A DNA stretch of 63,663 nucleotides, the filler included, from Actinomycetota bacterium (GTDB lineage Bacteria; Actinomycetota; Actinomycetes; JAKEEW01), in the NCBI GenBank assembly GCA_046725875.1. It is 8 parts of 8 records of this genome, joined end to end, with 100 filler letters (N's around TTAATTAATTAA, not from the genome) between each part and the next. Parts side by side here need not be neighbours in the genome. Positions count along the whole stretch, not along the records: positions 7,203 to 15,930 come from JBKOZJ010000031.1; 7 more parts are not named here. One strand, given 5' to 3'. Shown here in pieces: positions 7,103 to 16,030 of this stretch. Within the stretch, counting starts at the first letter, position 1; every line of letters begins with the position of its first letter. The notes beneath the pieces were generated by a model that was not told where the DNA came from, did no database searches, and was given only the letters and a program-made list of their open reading frames with translations. The position numbers and the translations under genes were made by a program.

Positions 7103-7202
7103 NNNNNNNNNNNNNNNNNNNNNNNNNNNNNNNNNNNNNNNNNNNNTTAATTAATTAANNNNNNNNNNNNNNNNNNNNNNNNNNNNNNNNNNNNNNNNNN
7201 NN
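7103..7202. other. Artificial contig spacer (N44-TTAATTAATTAA-N44); identical spacers at 15931-16030, 23679-23778, 31218-31317, 48592-48691, 55696-55795, 58403-58502
   Basis: Same 100-bp structure seven times with a six-frame stop linker; genes are cut at these positions. Confidence 0.99.
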
Positions 7203-7273
7203 CTTCCGTCCGGCACGAGCGCCGGCCCGGCCACGTCGAACCACAGTCGTGTCCCGTTCACGTCGATGTGCAT
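7203..7273 (-). CDS. Alpha/beta hydrolase N-terminus (partial)
   Basis: GGAGG RBS then MHIDVNGTRLWFDVAGPALVPDG, cut by contig end. Confidence 0.7.
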
Positions 7274-7442
7274 CGTGCTGTTCCTCCAGTCATCCCGGCC
7301 CTGGCCGCCGACGTACCCGATTCGGCGGCTGGCGTCTGAACGCGTTCATCGCTGCGCCCGCTGATCGTGGAGCCCAGCAGAGCGACGGTGACTCCTGTCC
7401 GCCCATTGGGCCGGCCGGCTCGCCCCGTGGAACCCGACCCGC

Positions 7443-7482
7443 CTTCGGCAGGCTTTCGGGCAGGCTTCGGGCAGGCTTCGGG
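7443..7482. repeat. Imperfect 11-bp tandem repeat CTTCGGGCAGG, about 3.5 copies
   Basis: cttcggcagg-ctttcgggcagg-cttcgggcagg-cttcggg. Confidence 0.8.
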
Positions 7483-7529
7483 TCACTGCGGGTCGTCCGC
7501 GCAGTCTGTTCGGTGTCGTCCTGTGGGCA

Positions 7530-8350
7530 TCAGGCGCGGACGCGTCGGGTCAGTTCGGCCAGTTCGTGGTTGAAGCGGTCGGGCAGGTCGCCAGGACGTG
7601 CTCGGCCATCGCCGGTAGCACGACCGTGTCCGCGCGGCCGTGGGAGACCAGCAGCGGCACCTCGAGAGCACGCAGCACGTCGTCGCCGTCGATCTCGCGT
7701 GCCCCGAGATTGGCCCGGATATGCGCCGGCACGGTCATGCTGGAGCACAGCAGTGTCTCGACGTCGTCGGGCGGCAGCGGCTTGGCCGAGAAGGCCCGGA
7801 CCATCCCGCGCATGGCCCGGATGTTGCTCGGCAGGTCGTCGGCGGTCGCATCGGGGAAATGGTCGACAAAGCCGGGGCCGATCAGGGTGCCGAACGCGGC
7901 CCCACCCAATGTGGTGACGCCTCCGACGAAGTCGATCGCCGCGATCCGGTCCTGGTCGTGTGCGCGCACGTAGTCGCAAATGATGAAGCCGCCGTAGGAC
8001 CAGCCGACCAGCACCGGCCGGTCCAGGCGCAGTTGGTCAATGATGGCTGCCACGTCGTCGGCCCACAGCCTGCCGTCGGTGTAGTGCTCGAGCTCAAGGG
8101 GCGCCTCGGACATGCCGTGGCCACGCAGATCGTAGGCCACGAGCCGGAAGTCGTCGGCCAGTCCGCTGTCGTACTGGTGGCGCCAGCACAGATGGTTCTG
8201 CGACAGGCCATGGATGAACAGGATGGGCGGCCCGTCGGTGTTGCCCCATTCGCGTGCATGCAGCCGCAGACCGCCGCCACCGTAGACCGTGTGAGTCTTC
8301 ATCAACCGGGTCGGCTCTAGCGCCGCCGCGGGCCGTTCGACGACTGTCAT
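7530..8350 (-). pseudogene. Alpha/beta hydrolase (non-heme haloperoxidase-like) with C-terminal deletion and frameshift
   Basis: FIHGLS, YDLRGHGMS, GWSYGG, HGRADTVV present; catalytic-His segment absent; terminal helix PDRFNHELAELTRRVRA is in another frame. Confidence 0.8.
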
Positions 8351-8513
8351 CTCTTCCCCCTCGCGTTGGTATGTCGACACGATCGTGGCGTGGGCGGGGC
8401 ATCGGGGCATCGGGCGGAGAGCCTTATGTGTGGCCGGCAGCCGGCTTATCTTGTGGCCGGGCGTGCTTACCCGGCACCTTCTCGGCCGGTGGGGACGGCG
8501 CGATACTGCCTGG

Positions 8514-11353
8514 ATGGAGGCGCGCGTGGGCGGGGCGTTCGTGGGTCGCGTACGGGAGCTTGGGGAGCTGGAGCACGCGCTGACCGCGACCCGGTCGGGC
8601 AGGGGTACGGCCGTCCTGGTCGCCGGCGAGGCGGGCATCGGCAAGACGAGGCTCGCATCCGAGTTCGCCGCACGCGCCGGCGACGCGGGCTTCGAGGTTC
8701 TCCTGGGGCACTCGATCGACCTGGTCGGGACCGAACTGCCTTACCAGCCCTTCGTCGAGGCGCTGCGCCCGCTCGGACCGCCTCCACCGGTCGATGGCCG
8801 GCCGGTGGGCTCCCAGCTCGCGGTGTTTGAGGAGACGCTCGCACTGCTCACCGACCGTGCCGCCGCGGCGCCGGTGCTGCTCGTGCTCGAAGACCTGCAC
8901 TGGGCCGACGCGTCGACGCTCGACCTGGTCGTCTTCCTCGCGCACAACCTCGACCACCGGCGGGTCCTGCTGCTCGCCACCTACCGCGCCGACGAGCCCT
9001 CGTCGTCCCAGCGTGTACGCCGGCTCGCCGACGGCGTGATGCGTTCGGGCTCGGGGTTTGTGCTCGAGCTCGGCCCGCTCGAGCCGGGGGAGCTGATGGC
9101 GCTCCTCGCGGCCCAGGCCGACACGCCATTGTCGGCGGCGCTGAGTGACGCAATCGTGGCCCGCGCCGAGGGCAACCCCTTCTTCGCCGAAGAGGTCCTC
9201 GCCGCCGCGGCCGACCGAAACGTCGAGGTCCCGCGCGGCCTGCGTGACCTGTTGCTGCAGCGCGTGGCCCGGCTCGACCGTCAGACGCAGAGCCTGCTAC
9301 GGCTGGCCGCGGCCGCCGGGCGCGACGTTGGATACCGTCTGCTGCGCGCCACCGCGGCGCGCCCGGAGTCCGATGTGCGTGAGTCGCTGCGCCAGGCGGT
9401 CGAGCACGGGGTGCTCGTCGCGGAACCGGCCAGCGGCACCTTCCGCTTCCGCCACGCCCTGCTGGCGGAGGCGATCTACGCGACGAGCCTGCCCGGTGAG
9501 CGCGAGGAGCTGCATGCGCAGATCGCCGAGGAGCTCGCGCGCAACGCCACCGCGTCACCAGCGGAACTTGCGCCGCATTGGGCGGCAGCCGGTCGAGCCA
9601 GAGAGGCACTGGTCGCCTCGGTCGAAGCGGCACACCAGGCGGAAGCCGTCTTCGGCCTTGCGGAGGCGCTCGCGCACCTCGAACGGGTACTCGCGCTGTG
9701 GTACGCCGTGCCTGACGCAGCCGAGCTGGTACGGGTCGAGCTGGTCGATCTGTTGTTCTGGGCAGCCGAGCTCGCCAGCCAGACCGGCAAGGCGCCGCGG
9801 GCGGTCGAGCTGGCGCGAGGGGCGATCGAGCTGCAGGACGACCGGCACCGGGCGGCGCTTCTTTACGTCCGCCTTGGTGAGTACCTCCTCGAGATCGGCA
9901 GGAACCACGATGCACTCGCCGCGCTCCGGCGCGCGGTCGAGATCCTGCCGGAACAGCCGCCGTCGCCGGAGCGCGCGTACGCGTTGGGATCGCTCGCAGG
10001 CGGGGTGATGGTGGCCTGGCGCCATGCGGAGTCGTTGCCGACGGGCGAGCAGGCGCTCGCGCTCGCCCGGCAGGTCGGCGCACGTGAGGCAGAGGTCCGA
10101 GCGCTCACCGTGCTCGGCGGCGACCTCGCCTACCTCGGCCACGGCGAGGAGGGCCTCACCCATTTTCGTCAGGCCCTGCGGCTCGCCGAGGAGATCGACG
10201 ATCGCTGGGGCCTGGACCGCGCGTACACCAATCTCACCGACGCGCTGACCATGCTGGGCCGGCCCGTGGAGTCGGCGCGGCTAGCGCAGACGGGCCTCAA
10301 GGTGCTCCGCAGGTACGGCATTCACAGCACGCTGCTCATCGCCAACACCATCGAAGCGCAGTTCGTAATCGGCGAATGGGACGAAGCCGACACCCTCAGC
10401 GCGGCCGCCCTGCGCGGCAACACCGCCAACTACCCATACGTGCTCCTCATGCTCCGCGCCGACCTCGAGGTCGGCCGCGGCGACTTCGACGCCGCCAGAG
10501 CACACTTCGACGCCGCGCTCGCCACCCTGCGCGAGGACCGCAGACTGGGAATCTACGACGTCTCCCTCGCAGAGCTCGCTTTGTGGGAACGCCGCTGGAC
10601 CGACGCGACCAGGCGGTGGGGGACAGCCTGGTCCTGGCGCGCTCATCCGCGGCCGCCCAACTCCGCGTGTGGTTCTGCGCGAAGGGGCTGCGTGCTCAAG
10701 CGGAGCTGGCAGCGCTCGCCCGCGCCCGCCGCGACGCCGACGCCGTCCGTGCCCGGCTCGCCCGGGCACGCAGGATCATCGCGGTCGCTCGACACGCCGC
10801 AGCCCAGGCCTCAGCGATCACGCCGAACACCGGTGGCTGGCTCGCGCTTGCCGAGGCCGAGTATCAGCGCGCCCGGGGCGTCGTCCGGCCCGAGTCATGG
10901 TCGCAGGCAGCCGAGGCCTGGGAGCGGCTCGAGCGACCGCCCGTTGTGGCGTACTGTCGCTGGCGTCAGGCCGAGGCGTTCGTCGTCGCGGGTGCGTCCC
11001 GCGTCGAGGCGAGCGTGCCGCTACGAGAGGCCCATGCCGTCGCGGCTCGCATCGGAGCAGCGCCGCTGCGCCGCGAGCTCGAGCTGCTTGCCGAACGCGC
11101 GCGGCTCGATCTCGCCTCACCGCAAGCGGAGCCGCCCGACCAACAGCAGCGCCTGGAGGACATCCTCGGCCTCACGCCCCGCGAGACCGAGGTCCTCAGC
11201 CTCGCCGCCCGCGGCTACACCAACCGCGAGATCGCCACGACCCTCGTCATCAGCGTCAAGACGGCCGGCGTCCACGTCTCCCACATTCTGCGCAAGCTCG
11301 GCGTGCCGAACCGGCACGAGGCGGCCGCAATCCTGCACCGCATCTCCCCGTGA
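8514..11353 (+). pseudogene. Large ATP-binding LuxR-family regulator (LAL), 1-nt frameshift near 10607
   Basis: FVGRVREL, GEAGIGKTRL, LEDLHWAD, EGNPFF, FRHALL in the first frame; LuxR HTH LTPRETEVL..GYTNREIA..KTAGVHVSHILRKL in the second frame ending 11353. Confidence 0.85.
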
Positions 11354-11573
11354 GGTGGACCAACTCGATCCCAGTGAGCGGCCCGCGCGCTTCGCCGACC
11401 AGGCTCCCAAGAATCGACGACGATCCGCGAACACTGGCCGCCACACTGCGGCCAGGGCGGTCGGTGCCGGCGCGGATAGTCAGTAGAGCTCGGGTTGACG
11501 GCGGGGAGATACCGCTCATCGATACCAGTCAGCTCTTCTTGCGTGAACCGCTCTCACTTCTTGTGTTGCTGCC

Positions 11574-12277
11574 TCACCGCCCTGTCGGCAGAAAGATCAG
11601 CCGGTCAGCGATTCCATCGAGCAAGTACGGGGGCAGGTCGAGAGCGATGGAGAGCTCCGCCACGGACTGGACCGGACCGACCGTGGTCCGCGTGCTGACG
11701 ATGCGGGCGCAGATCTCCGGTGGCAACCCCGTCGCGGCCACCAACGCGTCGGCGGGGACGTTGTTGATATCCACGAGCCCTCCGTCGGGATAAGCGCGAT
11801 CGGGCATGTCCACCCGGCCGATCCGGAGGGCCAGCGCCCGGCTGGGGTTATCTTCGGCGATGCGCCGTGCTCGTTCGCGTGCGCGTTGGTGCTCGTTTTG
11901 AGTGGCGAGCGCGGCCTGTTGCTGGTCTGCGATGCTTCGATGGCCGGGCTCGGCATGAGCCGGCGGTGGCAGGTCGAACACCCAGCGCCGGATCGCCAGG
12001 GCATGGCTGCCACCGACCAGCCACTGGCCGGTGAGCGCGATACTGTACACGGCCTCGTAGATGGCCGTGTCATTCGGGTACGAGATTGAGAATGCGTGGC
12101 GGTGGCCACTAAGTAGAGGACGGCCACCGCGCCCAGCGCAAAGCTCCGTCTGCGGATCGCTGCAAAGATCATGCACGGCGCGGTGGCAAATCCGAGAGTG
12201 GCCAGAGGAAGCAGAGCCCAGACCCAACTTCCGGCGACCTGGCCGAGGTAGCCAGGGCGGCGCAGATGCCCGGTCAT
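11574..12277 (-). pseudogene. Membrane protein with C-terminal ComEA-like helix-hairpin-helix domain, frameshift near 12095
   Basis: TM N-terminus (WALLPLATLGFATAP..) in one frame; 'LRIGRVD..YPDGGLVDINNVPADAL..GLPPEICARIV' in another. Confidence 0.7.
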
Positions 12278-12299
12278 GACGCTGATCGTAGGCCGTCAC

Positions 12300-12650
12300 T
12301 CACGGGACGAGGCCGTCGTGGTTCGGGACCGACGGCGTGGAGATGAGGGACAGGTGCCCGGCATTGACGTCGGTGATATGGGCGCGCCCGCGCGCTGGGC
12401 CATGAACGTCAACTCCGCGGGCCGGGATGACCTGGTCCACCGTCCCGATCACGGCCCAGGACGGGATGGTCTTCCAGGCCGGCGGCCCGGACGGCTCGTC
12501 GAACGTGCTGGCCGCGAGCGGCCGTTGGGTGGCCGCGATGACCGCCGCCTGGCTGGCGGGCAGGCCGCTGGCAAAGCATGCGGGGACCAGGTTGGGCTTG
12601 ATGTAGAGGTCGACGTCACCGGGCGGCCCACCGGGGCAGGCCACGAGGCG
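12300..12650 (-). pseudogene. C-terminal fragment of an alpha/beta hydrolase
   Basis: AATQRPLA..PAWKTIPSWAVIGTVDQVIP..AHITDVNAGHLSLIS; N-terminus missing and internal frame disruption. Confidence 0.7.
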
Positions 12651-12951
12651 CATATAGCCGGTCGGAAATGGTGATGCCGGATCCGCCGGCGAGGGTCATG
12701 AGGTGGTGTCGGTCGACGAGCCGGCGCCGGCTCAAATCGCGTTCGGACACCTCGCTCGTCTGATACGGAAGAGGTCATATCAATGCGCCCGAGGGTGCAG
12801 CACTTCGAGCAGCAACAGTCTCTCCTTTGCCCAGCCGTTGGCGGTCGGTTCGGGGTTTGCCCAAGCGTGCATGGCGGTCAGGACATTGCCCTCCCGAAAT
12901 TCGGGACGAAGAGGCGGTGTGGCTTGGTCATAGGCGCCAGCCCAGCTCTGA

Positions 12952-13443
12952 TCAGCCGGATACGTCGGAGGTGTACCCCCTGGTCGGGTCCAGAACTACC
13001 ATGTTCGCCCGAAGCGCGATCGCAGCTACCATCTCCGCGGAAACGGGGCCGGTCCGGAGCGCCTCGTCCATTTCTTCAAAGTAAGTCTCCATCGCGCCGG
13101 GCACAAAGATCATCAACTTCCTGGCTTTCTTCGCGCCCACGGTGAAGCCGTGGGGAACACCCCGGGGGATAAAGATGAACGAGCCGGGGCCACACGAAAA
13201 CGCCTCGCGGTCTAGGACAACCTGGTATTCGCCCTCGAGGACGTAGAACGACTCGGCGGTATCGGTGTGAAAGTGAGGCGGCGGTGAGAAACCCGGCATG
13301 TCCTCTGTCTCAAACAGGGACAAGATGCCCTGCGTCTGTTGTGCGGACGCCTTTAAGGACATCTGCATATCGCCGAGGTCAAGCGACTTGCCCTCACCGG
13401 GCTGGGCAACGAAACCGCCTGAGCCGGGTCGCGATTCATCCAT
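12952..13443 (-). CDS. Cupin domain protein (quercetinase-like)
   Basis: PPPHFHTDTAESFYVLEG and FIPRGVPHGF cupin motifs; GAAGGGGA RBS. Confidence 0.85.
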   Translation of the reverse strand: MDESRPGSGGFVAQPGEGKSLDLGDMQMSLKASAQQTQGILSLFETEDMPGFSPPPHFHTDTAESFYVLEGEYQVVLDREAFSCGPGSFIFIPRGVPHGFTVGAKKARKLMIFVPGAMETYFEEMDEALRTGPVSAEMVAAIALRANMVVLDPTRGYTSDVSG

Positions 13444-13630
13444 GATGTTCCCCTTCGGCCACCGGCCAGGATCCTACGCCTGTCGAGGGGACTGGATTCT
13501 TGAGATGCCCCGCAGTGCCCTCCCGGGCTCGCCTCATCGTCTTTGAGTTCCTGGCCTGGTTGCGTGTCGGCGACCAGTTGCCGGTAGACCACGTCGGACA
13601 GTCGTCGTTTGAGTCCCCTAAGTCAGCTGT

Positions 13631-14336
13631 TCAGGCGATGAGTCGTTGCGTGTGTTGTTGCTGCATCGGGTCGTAGGGGGTTGCGTTTCGCCAGCAGGCC
13701 CAGATCACGCGTAGCCAGGCGCGGGCGAGGATGCGGGTGGCGTGGGGATTGCGTTTGCCGCGGGCTCGTGCTCTGGCGTAGTGGTCGGCGGCCCAGCCTG
13801 ATTGCATGCGCGAGTTGTGGGCGAAGGATGTCACCGCCTTGCGGGCGCGGGTGTTGGCCGCCCACCGGAAGTAGACGCCGGTGGTCTTGCCGGAGGCTTT
13901 GGTGACGGGCGCGGCGCCGGCTTCGGCTGCGGCCTGTTCGGCGGTGTCGACTCGGTCGAGGATGGGTCCGACCTCGGCGAGCAGTTGGGCCAGGTTGATA
14001 GTGCCAACGCCAGGTAATGCGGCGAGTAACCGTACCCGTGGATGGGCCTGGACGCGGTCGCGGATGAGCCGCTGGATGTTGCTGATGGCCTGCTGGAGGC
14101 CGCGCAGCAGCTGAACCTGGGCGGCGATCATCGCGGCGAGGGTGTCCGGCGGCAGGCTCTCGCTCGATGATCACCGGAAGGTCTGACGGCCGCCCGTGTC
14201 CGGCCAACCGCTGCAGGGCCGACAGCAATCCCTGCTCGGTGTGGCTGAACGCCCACCGATCCACCACGCTGCCGTCCGTGTCGAGCACGGTGACGTCGTG
14301 GGTGCGGCTTGCCCAGTCCCAGCCGACGAACTTCAT
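13631..14336 (-). pseudogene. IS110 recombinase of the nested element, internal deletion/frameshift near 14160
   Basis: MKFVGWDWA..VIIE (DEDD start) fused out of frame to LPGVG..AGAAPVTKASGK..ARARGK..RILARAWLRVIWACW (Tnp domain); GGGAGG RBS. Confidence 0.9.
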
Positions 14337-14344
14337 TGCTGGCC

Positions 14345-14560
14345 TCCCGTTGGAGTCGGTGGTTGACTCCGCGGTGTCGAGGCCCTCGCCGGTTCCTCAT
14401 TGTTCGGCCCTCGGTCGGGCATGTCCCTAACGCCGGTCGCGGGCCTCGGCGCATCGAGGGTGGCAGGACTCAAACTGGCCGGCAGCGCGGCGCGGCAGCG
14501 AGGCCATCCCCCGACACGACGAGGAGCCACGGCCAGGCGCCGAGCCCAGCCGCGGACCCG
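14345..14560 (-). ncRNA. Predicted IS110 bridge RNA (5' hairpin, target-binding loop, donor-binding loop)
   Basis: Guides: CGCTGCC 14500-14494, GTTTGAG 14475-14469, TTAGGGAC 14430-14423, CAATGAG 14402-14396; they match the reconstructed target and donor, each pair flanking a 4-bp inner hairpin. Ends approximate. Confidence 0.8.
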
Positions 14561-14957
14561 ATACTCCACCAATGAGGCAGCGCAGCGCCTCCATGGGGCT
14601 CTTCCCGGCGGCGAGTTTGCGGCAGTAATAAGCGCGGCCTTCGGTGTCGTGGCGGATCTGCACGATAGCGGCGATGTGCAGGACGTGGTTGATCCGGCGG
14701 TTTCCGCCCAGGACAGCCGGTGGCGGACGTTCTCACCCGAGGATGCCTCGATGGGTGCGGTGCCGGTCCAGGAGGCGAACCGGTTGCGGTCGGCGAACCG
14801 AGCGATGTCGCCGACGTCGGTGAGGATCCGGGCAGCGCCAGCCGGCACCCACGCTGGCCCGTTCGGTCTTGACTGGTTGCGTTCTGATGGGAAGCTGAGA
14901 GCGCTGACAGCCTAAGACCCCAAACCCCGGCCCTGGCCGTGTCGAGAGGTGGTCTCG

Positions 14958-15930
14958 ATGCCCGCCGTGACCCAGTACCTTCGTCGCCGCGGCCTGGCCC
15001 GGCTCACGCCCTACCTGATCGCCGTGATCCTGCCAGGCGCGGCGTTCGCCGCGGCCGATGGTGGGTCCCCCGCACCGGGCCCAGCGCCTCTGCGCGTCAA
15101 CCTGGCCATCGGTGCGGATGCGAGCGCGACCTCGGCGGCGGCCGACAGCCCGGCTGCCAACGCGGTGGACGGGAGCGCCACCACGACGTGGTGTGCCACC
15201 CAGTGGACCGGCAGCGTCACCATCGACTTCGGCGCGCAACGTGCACTTAGCGGCGCCGGCATCACGTTGGGAGCGACCGCCTCGCCATCGGCGGCATCAC
15301 TGGCGCTGGCGACGCGGCTCGACGCGTGGCAGCCGGTGCCCTCGGCACGCAATATCGCGTTGAACGTCAACACGCCGTCCTATATCGCGCTTTCCGCTCA
15401 GCGCGCCCGGTACGCACGGCCGACCGTAACGACCGGGGACGGCACGCCGGCCTGCGTCGGCGAGCTGCGGCTGTTCGGCGACGACGCGGCAACGGACGCG
15501 ATGATGCTCGGCGCCGACCTGTCCTTCACCCAGCAGGAACTGGCCGCGGGCACACAGTTCACCGATGCCGGTGAGACGTCCACGCCGGTGCAGATCCTGC
15601 GCGCCCATGGCGGCAACTACGTCCGGATGCGCCTGTGGCTGAACCCGCCGGCCGGCTACAGCGACCTCACAAATGACCTGGCGCTGGCCCGCGAGGTTGG
15701 GGCGGCCGGCATGAAGATCTACCTTGACATCCACTACTCGGACTTCTGGGCCGACCCGCAGCACCAGGACACGCCCGCCGCATGGCAGGGCCAGGACCTG
15801 CCCACGCTCGCGCGCACCGTCCAGGACTACACCCGCGAGGTGATTGCCGCCTTCGCCAAGCAGGGCACACCGGTGGACATGGTGTCGATCGGCAACGAGA
15901 TCCGCAACGGCATGCTCTGGCCCGTCGGCC
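14958..15930 (+). CDS. GH53 endo-beta-1,4-galactanase with N-terminal discoidin/F5-8-like domain (3' truncated)
   Basis: Signal peptide; NAVDGSATTTW..VTIDFG; YVRMRLWLNP, LDIHYSDFWADP, MVSIGNEI. Confidence 0.9.
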
Positions 15931-16030
15931 NNNNNNNNNNNNNNNNNNNNNNNNNNNNNNNNNNNNNNNNNNNNTTAATTAATTAANNNNNNNNNNNNNN
16001 NNNNNNNNNNNNNNNNNNNNNNNNNNNNNN

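Follow-up and report, generated by a model that had tools for sequence, protein, structure and literature searches.

Inside a decayed IS110-family transposase gene of an Actinomycetota metagenome-assembled genome (MAG; GenBank assembly GCA_046725875.1) lies a second insertion sequence (IS) of the same family, whose leader encodes a bridge RNA with guides that match the interrupted site. The DNA analyzed, called the window below, is 63,663 nt long, filler included. It consists of eight MAG contigs joined by paired 44-N linkers (7103-7202, 15931-16030, and five more places), and adjacency across the linkers is meaningless. The element sits on an 8.7-kb contig at window positions 7203-15930 (G000:C31; JBKOZJ010000031.1). 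All coordinates of the element and of the host gene relic are read on the minus strand, and the features are as follows.

14577-14848, minus: host relic, upstream part; C-terminal half of another IS110 transposase, truncated at its 5′ end and ending ...GKSPMEALRC (open reading frames (ORFs) and frames; Pfam Transposase_20, E 1.5e-10 for 14700-14848)
14575-14576, minus: left copy of the CT core; its bases are positions 1 and 2 of the host Leu codon (no other stretch is shared by target and donor throughout the relatives)
13612-14574, minus: inner element, an internally deleted, non-autonomous IS110-family element of 963 bp, counting the right-hand CT (junctions; alignment to relatives)
14337-14574, minus: left end, or leader, encoding the bridge RNA, whose 5′ hairpin is followed first by the target-binding loop and next by the donor-binding loop (consensus from 21 leaders)
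14500-14494, minus: left target guide CGCUGCC, in the same sense as target positions 2-8 and pairing with the bottom strand (guide-site match)
14468-14475, minus: right target guide GUUUGAG (14475-14469), pairing with top-strand CTCAAAC, followed by U at 14468 (guide-site match)
14423-14430, minus: left donor guide UUAGGGAC, matching the right end TTAGGGGAC at 8/9 with a one-base bulge (covariation with the right end)
14395-14402, minus: right donor guide CAAUGAG (14402-14396), all 7 bases of which pair with CTCATTG (core and left end), with G next to it at 14395 (guide-donor match)
14153-14336, minus: N-terminal remnant of the recombinase, MKFVGWDWA..., 61 residues (Pfam DEDD_Tnp_IS110, profile 1-44 of 155, E 1.3e-7)
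14144-14163, minus: approximate junction of the ~510-bp internal deletion (blastn against full-length relatives)
13631-14131, minus: C-terminal part of the recombinase, 166 residues plus stop, with ...HATRILARAW... (Pfam Transposase_20, E 1.2e-12)
13614-13630, minus: right end, with CTGACT, a putative -35 box, at 13626-13621 (right ends of relatives)
13612-13613, minus: right copy of the CT core (junction reading and relatives)
13353-13611, minus: host relic, downstream part, (L)KRRLSDVVYRQLVAD... plus read-on as far as the next stop (uninterrupted IS110 genes show this tail after RCL)

The insertion divides the RCL/KR codons (the slash marks the insertion point) near the 3′ end of the host gene, whose product is only distantly related to the inner recombinase. 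The host frame ...GKSPMEALRC (ATG GAG GCG CTG CGC TGC CT) is broken at 14575/14574, within the Leu codon, and continues past the second CT (13613-13612) as C AAA CGA CGA CTG, which reads (L)KRRLSDVVY. The host transposase is deprived of its ~20 final residues. An earlier note, made from the sequence of this DNA, had stated that removal of the insert restores MEALRCLKRRL at an empty site; direct reading of the junctions agrees, as excision of 963 bp rebuilds these residues. The host relic also carries a one-base frameshift near 14700-14720, inside ...RHRLS/GGNRRINHV... (here the slash marks the frameshift). It is truncated upstream near 14860, where it adjoins a plus-strand gene starting at 14949.

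The inner element begins CATTGGTGG (14574) and finishes ...TTAGGGGA (13614) in minus-strand reading, and it is a dead relic of an IS110-family element of ~1.46 kb. It matches 1461-bp full-length relatives at their positions 1-416 and 929-1461, and the loss of ~510 bp takes out most of the RuvC-like domain and the linker. In all four full-length relatives tested, the DEDD domain (PF01548) is complete (1-155 of 155, E 3e-27 to 4e-30), and so is the Tnp domain (PF02371, Transposase_20), which the window copy retains as well. An ...ASGK... stretch stands where, we presume, the conserved serine of the Tnp domain should be. Full-length inner recombinases have 399-403 residues, or 424-425 in intact longer copies. 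These longer copies form a subgroup (L022, L031, L035, L037, L038, L040, L043, L045, and L047) of 1586-1589 bp. Their additional ~125 bp lie in a 3′ stretch that carries an inverted repeat, GCGCGGTCAAG ... CTTGACCGCGC, and their recombinase tail, where intact, is longer accordingly. Among 31 relatives whose right end could be read, 28 have TTGACT there, where the window copy has CTGACT, and an A-x-TAT motif lies in the left end, 17 nt beyond TTGACT, in the consensus of 22 elements. Judging from this arrangement, TTGACT may be the -35 box of a promoter that would form only in the circle. Promoter formation in the circle is stated for the IS110 family (PMC11208160; this and the other two papers cited here by PMC number are cited from parts of their text).

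The genome set of relatives comprises 36 loci from a protein-pattern scan (one genome per species), two loci from the MAG's own family, and the window copy. These loci come from Streptomyces, Nocardia, Mycobacterium, Parafrankia, Actinomadura, Geodermatophilaceae, and other Actinomycetota, and the C-terminal domain of the 36 scan loci is 54-80% identical to that of the window copy. When 61 related genomes (a tally that includes the unpublished genome G012) were searched with the element DNA, only two close leader matches were found, G003 and G005, both from the same family. All left junctions found read CT/CATTGG, and all 32 right junctions (31 relatives plus the window copy) read CT, then C, G, or A, then AA(A/G)CG. 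The earlier note had placed CTCA at both junctions of the window copy. CTCA is present at both, but as a core it was rejected, because its third base varies at the relatives' right junctions. CT is therefore the whole of the shared core, as no other stretch recurs in every junction pair; the base after it is part of the Leu codon of the host. No target bases beyond the core are duplicated.

The flanks of these relatives resemble those of the window copy. Of 30 right junctions with enough flank, 28 go on as KR(Y/R/Q)..., like the tails of IS110 transposases. At least 15 nt of left flank was available at 26 left junctions, the window copy included, and 23 of these come after ...(E/D)x(x)RC of another IS110 transposase gene; the left junction of L015 follows a decayed IS110 tail. 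Among upstream host ORFs of at least 100 residues, 12 of 14 match Transposase_20, and 8 of 14 also match the DEDD domain and are thus full length as far as the junction.

A metagenome scan with a 19-nt degenerate donor-loop word gave at least 120 stretches, of which 80 loci were fetched. Among the matches listed, 53 left junctions have a flank of at least 15 nt. Thirty-six of them lie in IS110 genes, comprising 25 Pfam matches among 26 ORFs tested and 11 assigned by the tail motif alone; 14 of the 26 ORFs are full length up to the junction. Ten others lie in IS3-family OrfA genes at the site ...ELRMERDV/LKRSVV, with HTH_Tnp_1 matched in 8 of the 9 tested. One extra IS110 junction, L105, was found beyond the 53. 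Tabulated over both sets, the flanks of relatives with the same guides are mostly IS110 genes (23/26 and, among the metagenome matches listed, 36/53) rather than non-IS sites.

The same inner lineage has entered different hosts. Two copies on one Streptomyces chromosome (L013 and L014) are 99.86% identical over 1460 nt, while their 300-nt left host flanks have no blastn match to each other. Likewise, the inner copies L035, L038, and L040 are ~98% identical, with flanks that are unrelated or 73% identical over 78 nt. Host tails belong to visibly different subfamilies (...REIIRCLKRYVAREIY versus ...EAMRCLKRRLSDVVY), and inner and host recombinases share 28-29% identity over ~125-135 residues. 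Near-identical inner copies in unrelated hosts point to repeated, independent insertions.

To examine the 238-nt leader, 21 sequences (the window copy, G003, and 19 loci; mean identity 79%) were aligned. The consensus structure has a 5′ hairpin, a stem around the target loop, and two stems around the donor loop. Over its 54 consensus pairs, 97.7% of cells are paired, versus 34-46% with the partners slid, and 18 of 54 pairs show compensatory change, versus 1-6 with the partners slid; none of 500 shuffles matched the observed values. In the stem of the target loop, 8 of 14 pairs show compensatory change. An Rfam scan of 12500-15500 at E up to 1 matched no family. Folded as a single sequence, the leader (z = -1.22) forms pairs between the guides themselves, and this fold is not distinctive.

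The two target guides jointly cover CGCTGCCTCAAAC (target positions 2-14) at 13/13, just as the earlier note stated. In mononucleotide shuffles of the leader, this pair of 7-mers at 8-45 nt spacing arose in 7 of 200,000. The right target guide is followed by a U able to pair with the invariant A that precedes the donor core, and the right donor guide by a G with a possible partner at target position 7 (C); cross-pairing at position 7 is the rule for the handshake guides of IS621 (Hiraizumi et al. 2024, PMC11208158). A three-base handshake match (GGA) in the window copy was discarded, as its first base alone is conserved. A second CGCTGCC (14487-14481), 6 nt past the left target guide in the apical target loop, was likewise set aside as a guide, being absent from all 20 aligned relatives. 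On the donor side, the second base of the left donor guide covaries with the right end: copies with C in the guide have C in the end (7/7), and copies with U have T (11/14) or, by wobble, C (3/14). The two-loop architecture of the leader with its covariation, together with the guide-site match, supports the proposal in the earlier note that the element was inserted on target by its own guides.

Pairing was scored, with wobble allowed, at 74 left junctions (positions 2-8) and 43 right junctions (positions 8-14). The left guide shows no mismatch at 33 and one at 27 of the 74 (60/74 with at most one in 7), and the right guide shows none at 29 and one at 12 of the 43 (41/43 with at most one in 7). 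Non-Watson-Crick pairs cluster at the third base of the codons for Arg, Cys, Leu, and Lys. Opposite the third base of Arg, the guide has C in the window copy and a few others and U in most, and the sites of copies with C in the guide have C. Similarly, copies with the right guide GUUUGAG have CTC as the Leu codon in 13 of 13 cases, and among copies with GUUUUAG or GCUUUAG, 4 of 9 have CTG. Relatives of 64-68% identity on actinobacterial plasmids are outgroups with other guides and other sites. The right guide of one outgroup is complementary to CT-CATGC, and the copy sits at exactly such a site, outside any annotated IS110 gene in the PLSDB gene tables, which are incomplete.

The guides coincide with a protein motif of the hosts. 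An intact unoccupied Streptomyces host gene was used to search for homologues, and at least 7,993 clusters at E up to 1e-10 were obtained among 8,000 scored candidates. RCLKR, described in the earlier note as a recurrent C-terminal motif, proves to be just that: it is carried by 116 of the best 120 of these clusters, mostly 19-20 residues from the C-terminus. In two host homologues (P0010 and P0038), RCL is followed by unrelated residues and not KR; these gene calls may run into an insert at the same codon. In a protein alignment, the element's own gene reads RILAR (...HATRILARAW...) where the host reads ...EALRCLKRRL, and its DNA mismatches the target at 5 of 13 positions. As its own gene has diverged at the homologous place, the element does not target itself.

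A tree of 74 leaders (L047, short rows, and rows bearing N left out) divides into two clades with 100/100 support. The window copy belongs to the main clade, and its nearest relative is a copy from a Mycobacterium MAG with 85% identity. The left target guide of the sister clade is CGAUGUCU, versus CGUUGCCG in the main clade, with three bases changed. Among the matches listed, the sister clade has 10 IS3-OrfA and 14 IS110 junctions, and the main clade has 0 and 21. Fisher's test of guide lineage against IS3 occupancy gives p = 7e-4, which overstates the support, as the copies are kin. Within the sister clade, copies in IS3 and IS110 sites are intermixed, with well-supported branches forcing at least five switches, and some pairs have leaders that are 99.6% identical. 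At the IS110 site, the sister-clade guide pairs in the normal register, both core bases included. The target loop of this lineage may read IS110 RC/LKR and IS3 OrfA DV/LKR in two registers.

The OrfA copies are L057, L067, L069, L075, L080, L095, L117, L120, L122, and L127, all from metagenomes. L122 lies three codons earlier than the other OrfA copies, which a 9-bp junction loss may explain. Rarer flanks were also seen. L102 and L103, which represent both guide lineages, come after ...RVTFMRC in a gene with weak similarity to the N-terminus of IS1634-family transposases (NCBIfam E 8e-5 and 4e-6, below the curated cut-off). In the right flanks of L033 (1585-1700), L113, and L085, two copies adjoin IstB, the IS21 helper, and one adjoins an IS630-type DDE_3. 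The IstB gene starts straight after the core, reading L/KR(E/D)..HL.TLDF. L033 has an IS110 tail at its left and IstB at its right, as though two copies had recombined.

We are confident that these elements form a bridge-RNA-guided clade, widespread in Actinomycetota, that targets the Arg-Cys-Leu-Lys codons of RCLKR in other IS110 transposases, and that the window holds a dead copy of it. The suggestion in the earlier note that IS110 transposase genes are the evolved target gains support from relatives with the same guides, which occupy the same codons of many different IS110 genes. We infer that RNA guidance is the cause of site choice in the clade, by the following route. The target-binding loop is complementary to CGN TGY CTN AAR C, ~20 residues from the C-terminus of the host transposase. 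By analogy with IS621 and ISEc21, the donor loop would pair with the excised circle and the target loop with the host gene, after which the recombinase would exchange strands at the CT of the Leu codon. Exchange at this CT would always give the same orientation and would always divide RCL/KR. The host element would presumably be harmed by the insertion.

A more specific proposal, that the clade is a specialized hunter of IS genes whose guide loops have adapted to a protein motif rather than to one DNA word, is tentative and on balance doubtful. Wherever the third base of an Arg, Leu, or Lys codon (or, in the sister lineage, of the Cys codon) can vary synonymously, the guide base facing it is U or G, and two alternatives at each such position could therefore be tolerated by wobble. 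Moreover, as the insertion always lies in sense orientation inside a transposase gene, the guide RNA could arise by read-through from the promoter of the host IS. If so, read-through would switch the parasite on together with its host IS.

Several observations weigh against the proposed targeting of IS110 genes. The window copy is dead, and the case is known from sequence alone. In its MAG, blastn found no second copy and no free 13-mer, and tblastn found merely scraps of IS110 genes at contig ends. The left junctions of L036 and L047 misfit in the genome set, and 2 IS1634-like and 5 unclassified junctions are exceptions among the 53 in the metagenome matches listed. The left guide of the main lineage leaves the second core base without a partner (46 of the 74 junctions), contrary to the IS621 rule. 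A single evolutionary event accounts for the difference in guides between the two lineages, and the sister-clade guide fits the IS3 site (GATGTC before the core) only one base out of register. The motif itself is also not confined to IS110 genes. In 201 genomes of the class, including one unpublished (G029), the degenerate 14-mer CGNTGYCTNAARCG occurs 228 times; among 30 free sites sampled, Pfam places 8 in IS110 genes and context another 4 (12 in all), the remaining 18 being elsewhere, and a reversed-pattern control is, by eye and unsummed, about equally frequent. The earlier note had envisaged a multicopy target, which the one complete genome checked does not show. This Streptomyces genome, which holds L013 and L014, has two occupied sites and three free matches, only one of the latter being in an IS110 gene and the other two being chance sites. 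The lone free IS110 site (L050) has CTG as its Leu codon, mismatching the resident right guide, and both occupied sites have CTC, which matches.

These free sites are what would be expected from survivorship, in which a 13-14-nt motif is common by chance in high-GC genomes, insertions into cellular genes are purged, and those in dispensable IS remain. Part of the IS110 enrichment at occupied sites may indeed be survival and not choice. Since free motif sites are found outside IS110 genes, the excess of IS genes at occupied sites probably results from targeting together with the purging of harmful insertions elsewhere, and the two are compatible with each other. We nevertheless consider survivorship an unlikely explanation. 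The guides are near constant over a deep clade with long tree branches (of 22 genome-set relatives, 21 have CGUUGCC as left target guide), they match the protein motif of the host homologues codon by codon, mismatches and wobbles gather at synonymous positions, and several rarer targets are IS genes as well (IS3 OrfA, IstB, IS630, and IS1634-like).

Recurrence could also be descent from a single ancient nesting, the IS110 element and its insert having spread as a composite. Nested copies would be co-inherited if the host element still moved, and the many host ORFs that run full length to the junction suit such a history. It is nonetheless hardly credible in view of inner copies with 98-99.9% identity in flanks with no or low DNA similarity, hosts from visibly different subfamilies, and the presence of the same inner lineage in IS3 OrfA genes. 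Only marginally less remote is the view that the site is picked by protein or by DNA structure and that the complementarity of the leader is incidental. Guidance in the clade is read from sequence, and the unpaired second core base of the main lineage would fit this view. Against it stand the covarying two-loop architecture of the leader, the covariation of the guides with both target and donor, and the bases for cross-pairing at position 7, as in the IS621 handshake guides; RNA guidance has been shown experimentally for IS621 (PMC11208160) and ISEc21 (PMC11187229).

The RNA-guided targeting of IS110 genes proposed here has a published precedent in ISEc21, an IS110-family element of Enterobacteria that targets conserved codons of IS3 transposases and whose movement requires its upstream RNA (Siddiquee 2024, PMC11187229). 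A natural redirection through changed guide bases is described in the same source for its relative ISMch6, with 72% transposase identity to ISEc21. Like our clade, ISEc21 draws its guide RNA from the upstream non-coding region and has its target in the transposase codons of another IS. It differs in targeting the catalytic domain of IS3, whereas our clade targets the C-terminal RCLKR of IS110 and its sister lineage the end of IS3 OrfA, and in its enterobacterial rather than actinobacterial hosts. It is also set apart by described size: recombinases of the ISEc21 cluster have 345-385 residues and those of the IS110 subgroup 395-455 (PMC11187229), and the 399-403 residues found here are within the latter range.

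IS621 shares with our clade a DEDD plus Tnp recombinase, a leader RNA with target and donor loops, a CT core, left guides in top-strand sense and right guides in bottom-strand sense, handshake-type bases at position 7, and a -35-like box in the right end facing the left end. In IS621, the bottom strand is bound by the left guides and the top strand by the right ones, and the core is part of what all four cover (Durrant et al. 2024, PMC11208160). Unlike our clade, which targets a protein-coding motif of another IS, IS621 targets repetitive extragenic palindromic (REP) sequences with a 326-residue recombinase, and its right target guide has 4 bases rather than 7. Our clade departs from IS621 in that the main-lineage left guide pairs with the first core base only and the left donor guide is bulged by one base.

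One IS specifically targeting another has another precedent, known to us from a title: IS1383 is said, in a 2001 study by Muller, Lauf, and Hermann, to target the inverted repeats of IS1384. Its target would differ from ours in being terminal inverted repeats rather than a coding motif. Durrant et al. cite the IS1383 study in the context of the IS110 family (PMC11208160). IS4321/IS5075 and the IS1111-attC group, which target Tn21-family inverted repeats and integron attC sites, respectively (PMC11187229), are also DEDD-transposase elements guided to conserved sequences of mobile elements. Unlike our clade, they belong to the IS1111 family, have the guide RNA downstream of the gene, and use non-coding recombination or terminal targets.

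The earlier note could not confirm that such an element was undescribed. The general principle is published for ISEc21 (PMC11187229), and we found no report of IS110-on-IS110 targeting. A full-text literature search, with coverage short of ISfinder, subscription journals, and bioRxiv supplements, retrieved no account of an IS110 element whose targets in Actinomycetota are IS110 transposase genes or IS3 OrfA. In the supplements of PMC11208160, as far as these were available, three short guide or target strings matched IS621 oligonucleotides, alignment rows, and target lists, none identified as this clade, and the motif may still be listed there. The lineage is a well-supported variant of a published kind of system, itself apparently undescribed.

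These elements provide a large natural data set: more than 100 copies fall into two guide lineages, several alleles of the target are represented, and one retargeting in nature is clear. For the engineering of bridge recombinases, they offer natural evidence on tolerance of wobble and mismatch, on an unpaired second core base, and on a possible target in a slipped register. Insertions at RCL/KR also explain a class of 'split' IS110 transposase annotations. Our results suggest that IS110 and IS3 elements in Actinomycetota are subject to a layer of parasitism, which may limit or mark them. They also indicate that RNA-guided IS110 elements have, time and again, adopted other insertion sequences, those of their own family included, as safe landing sites.

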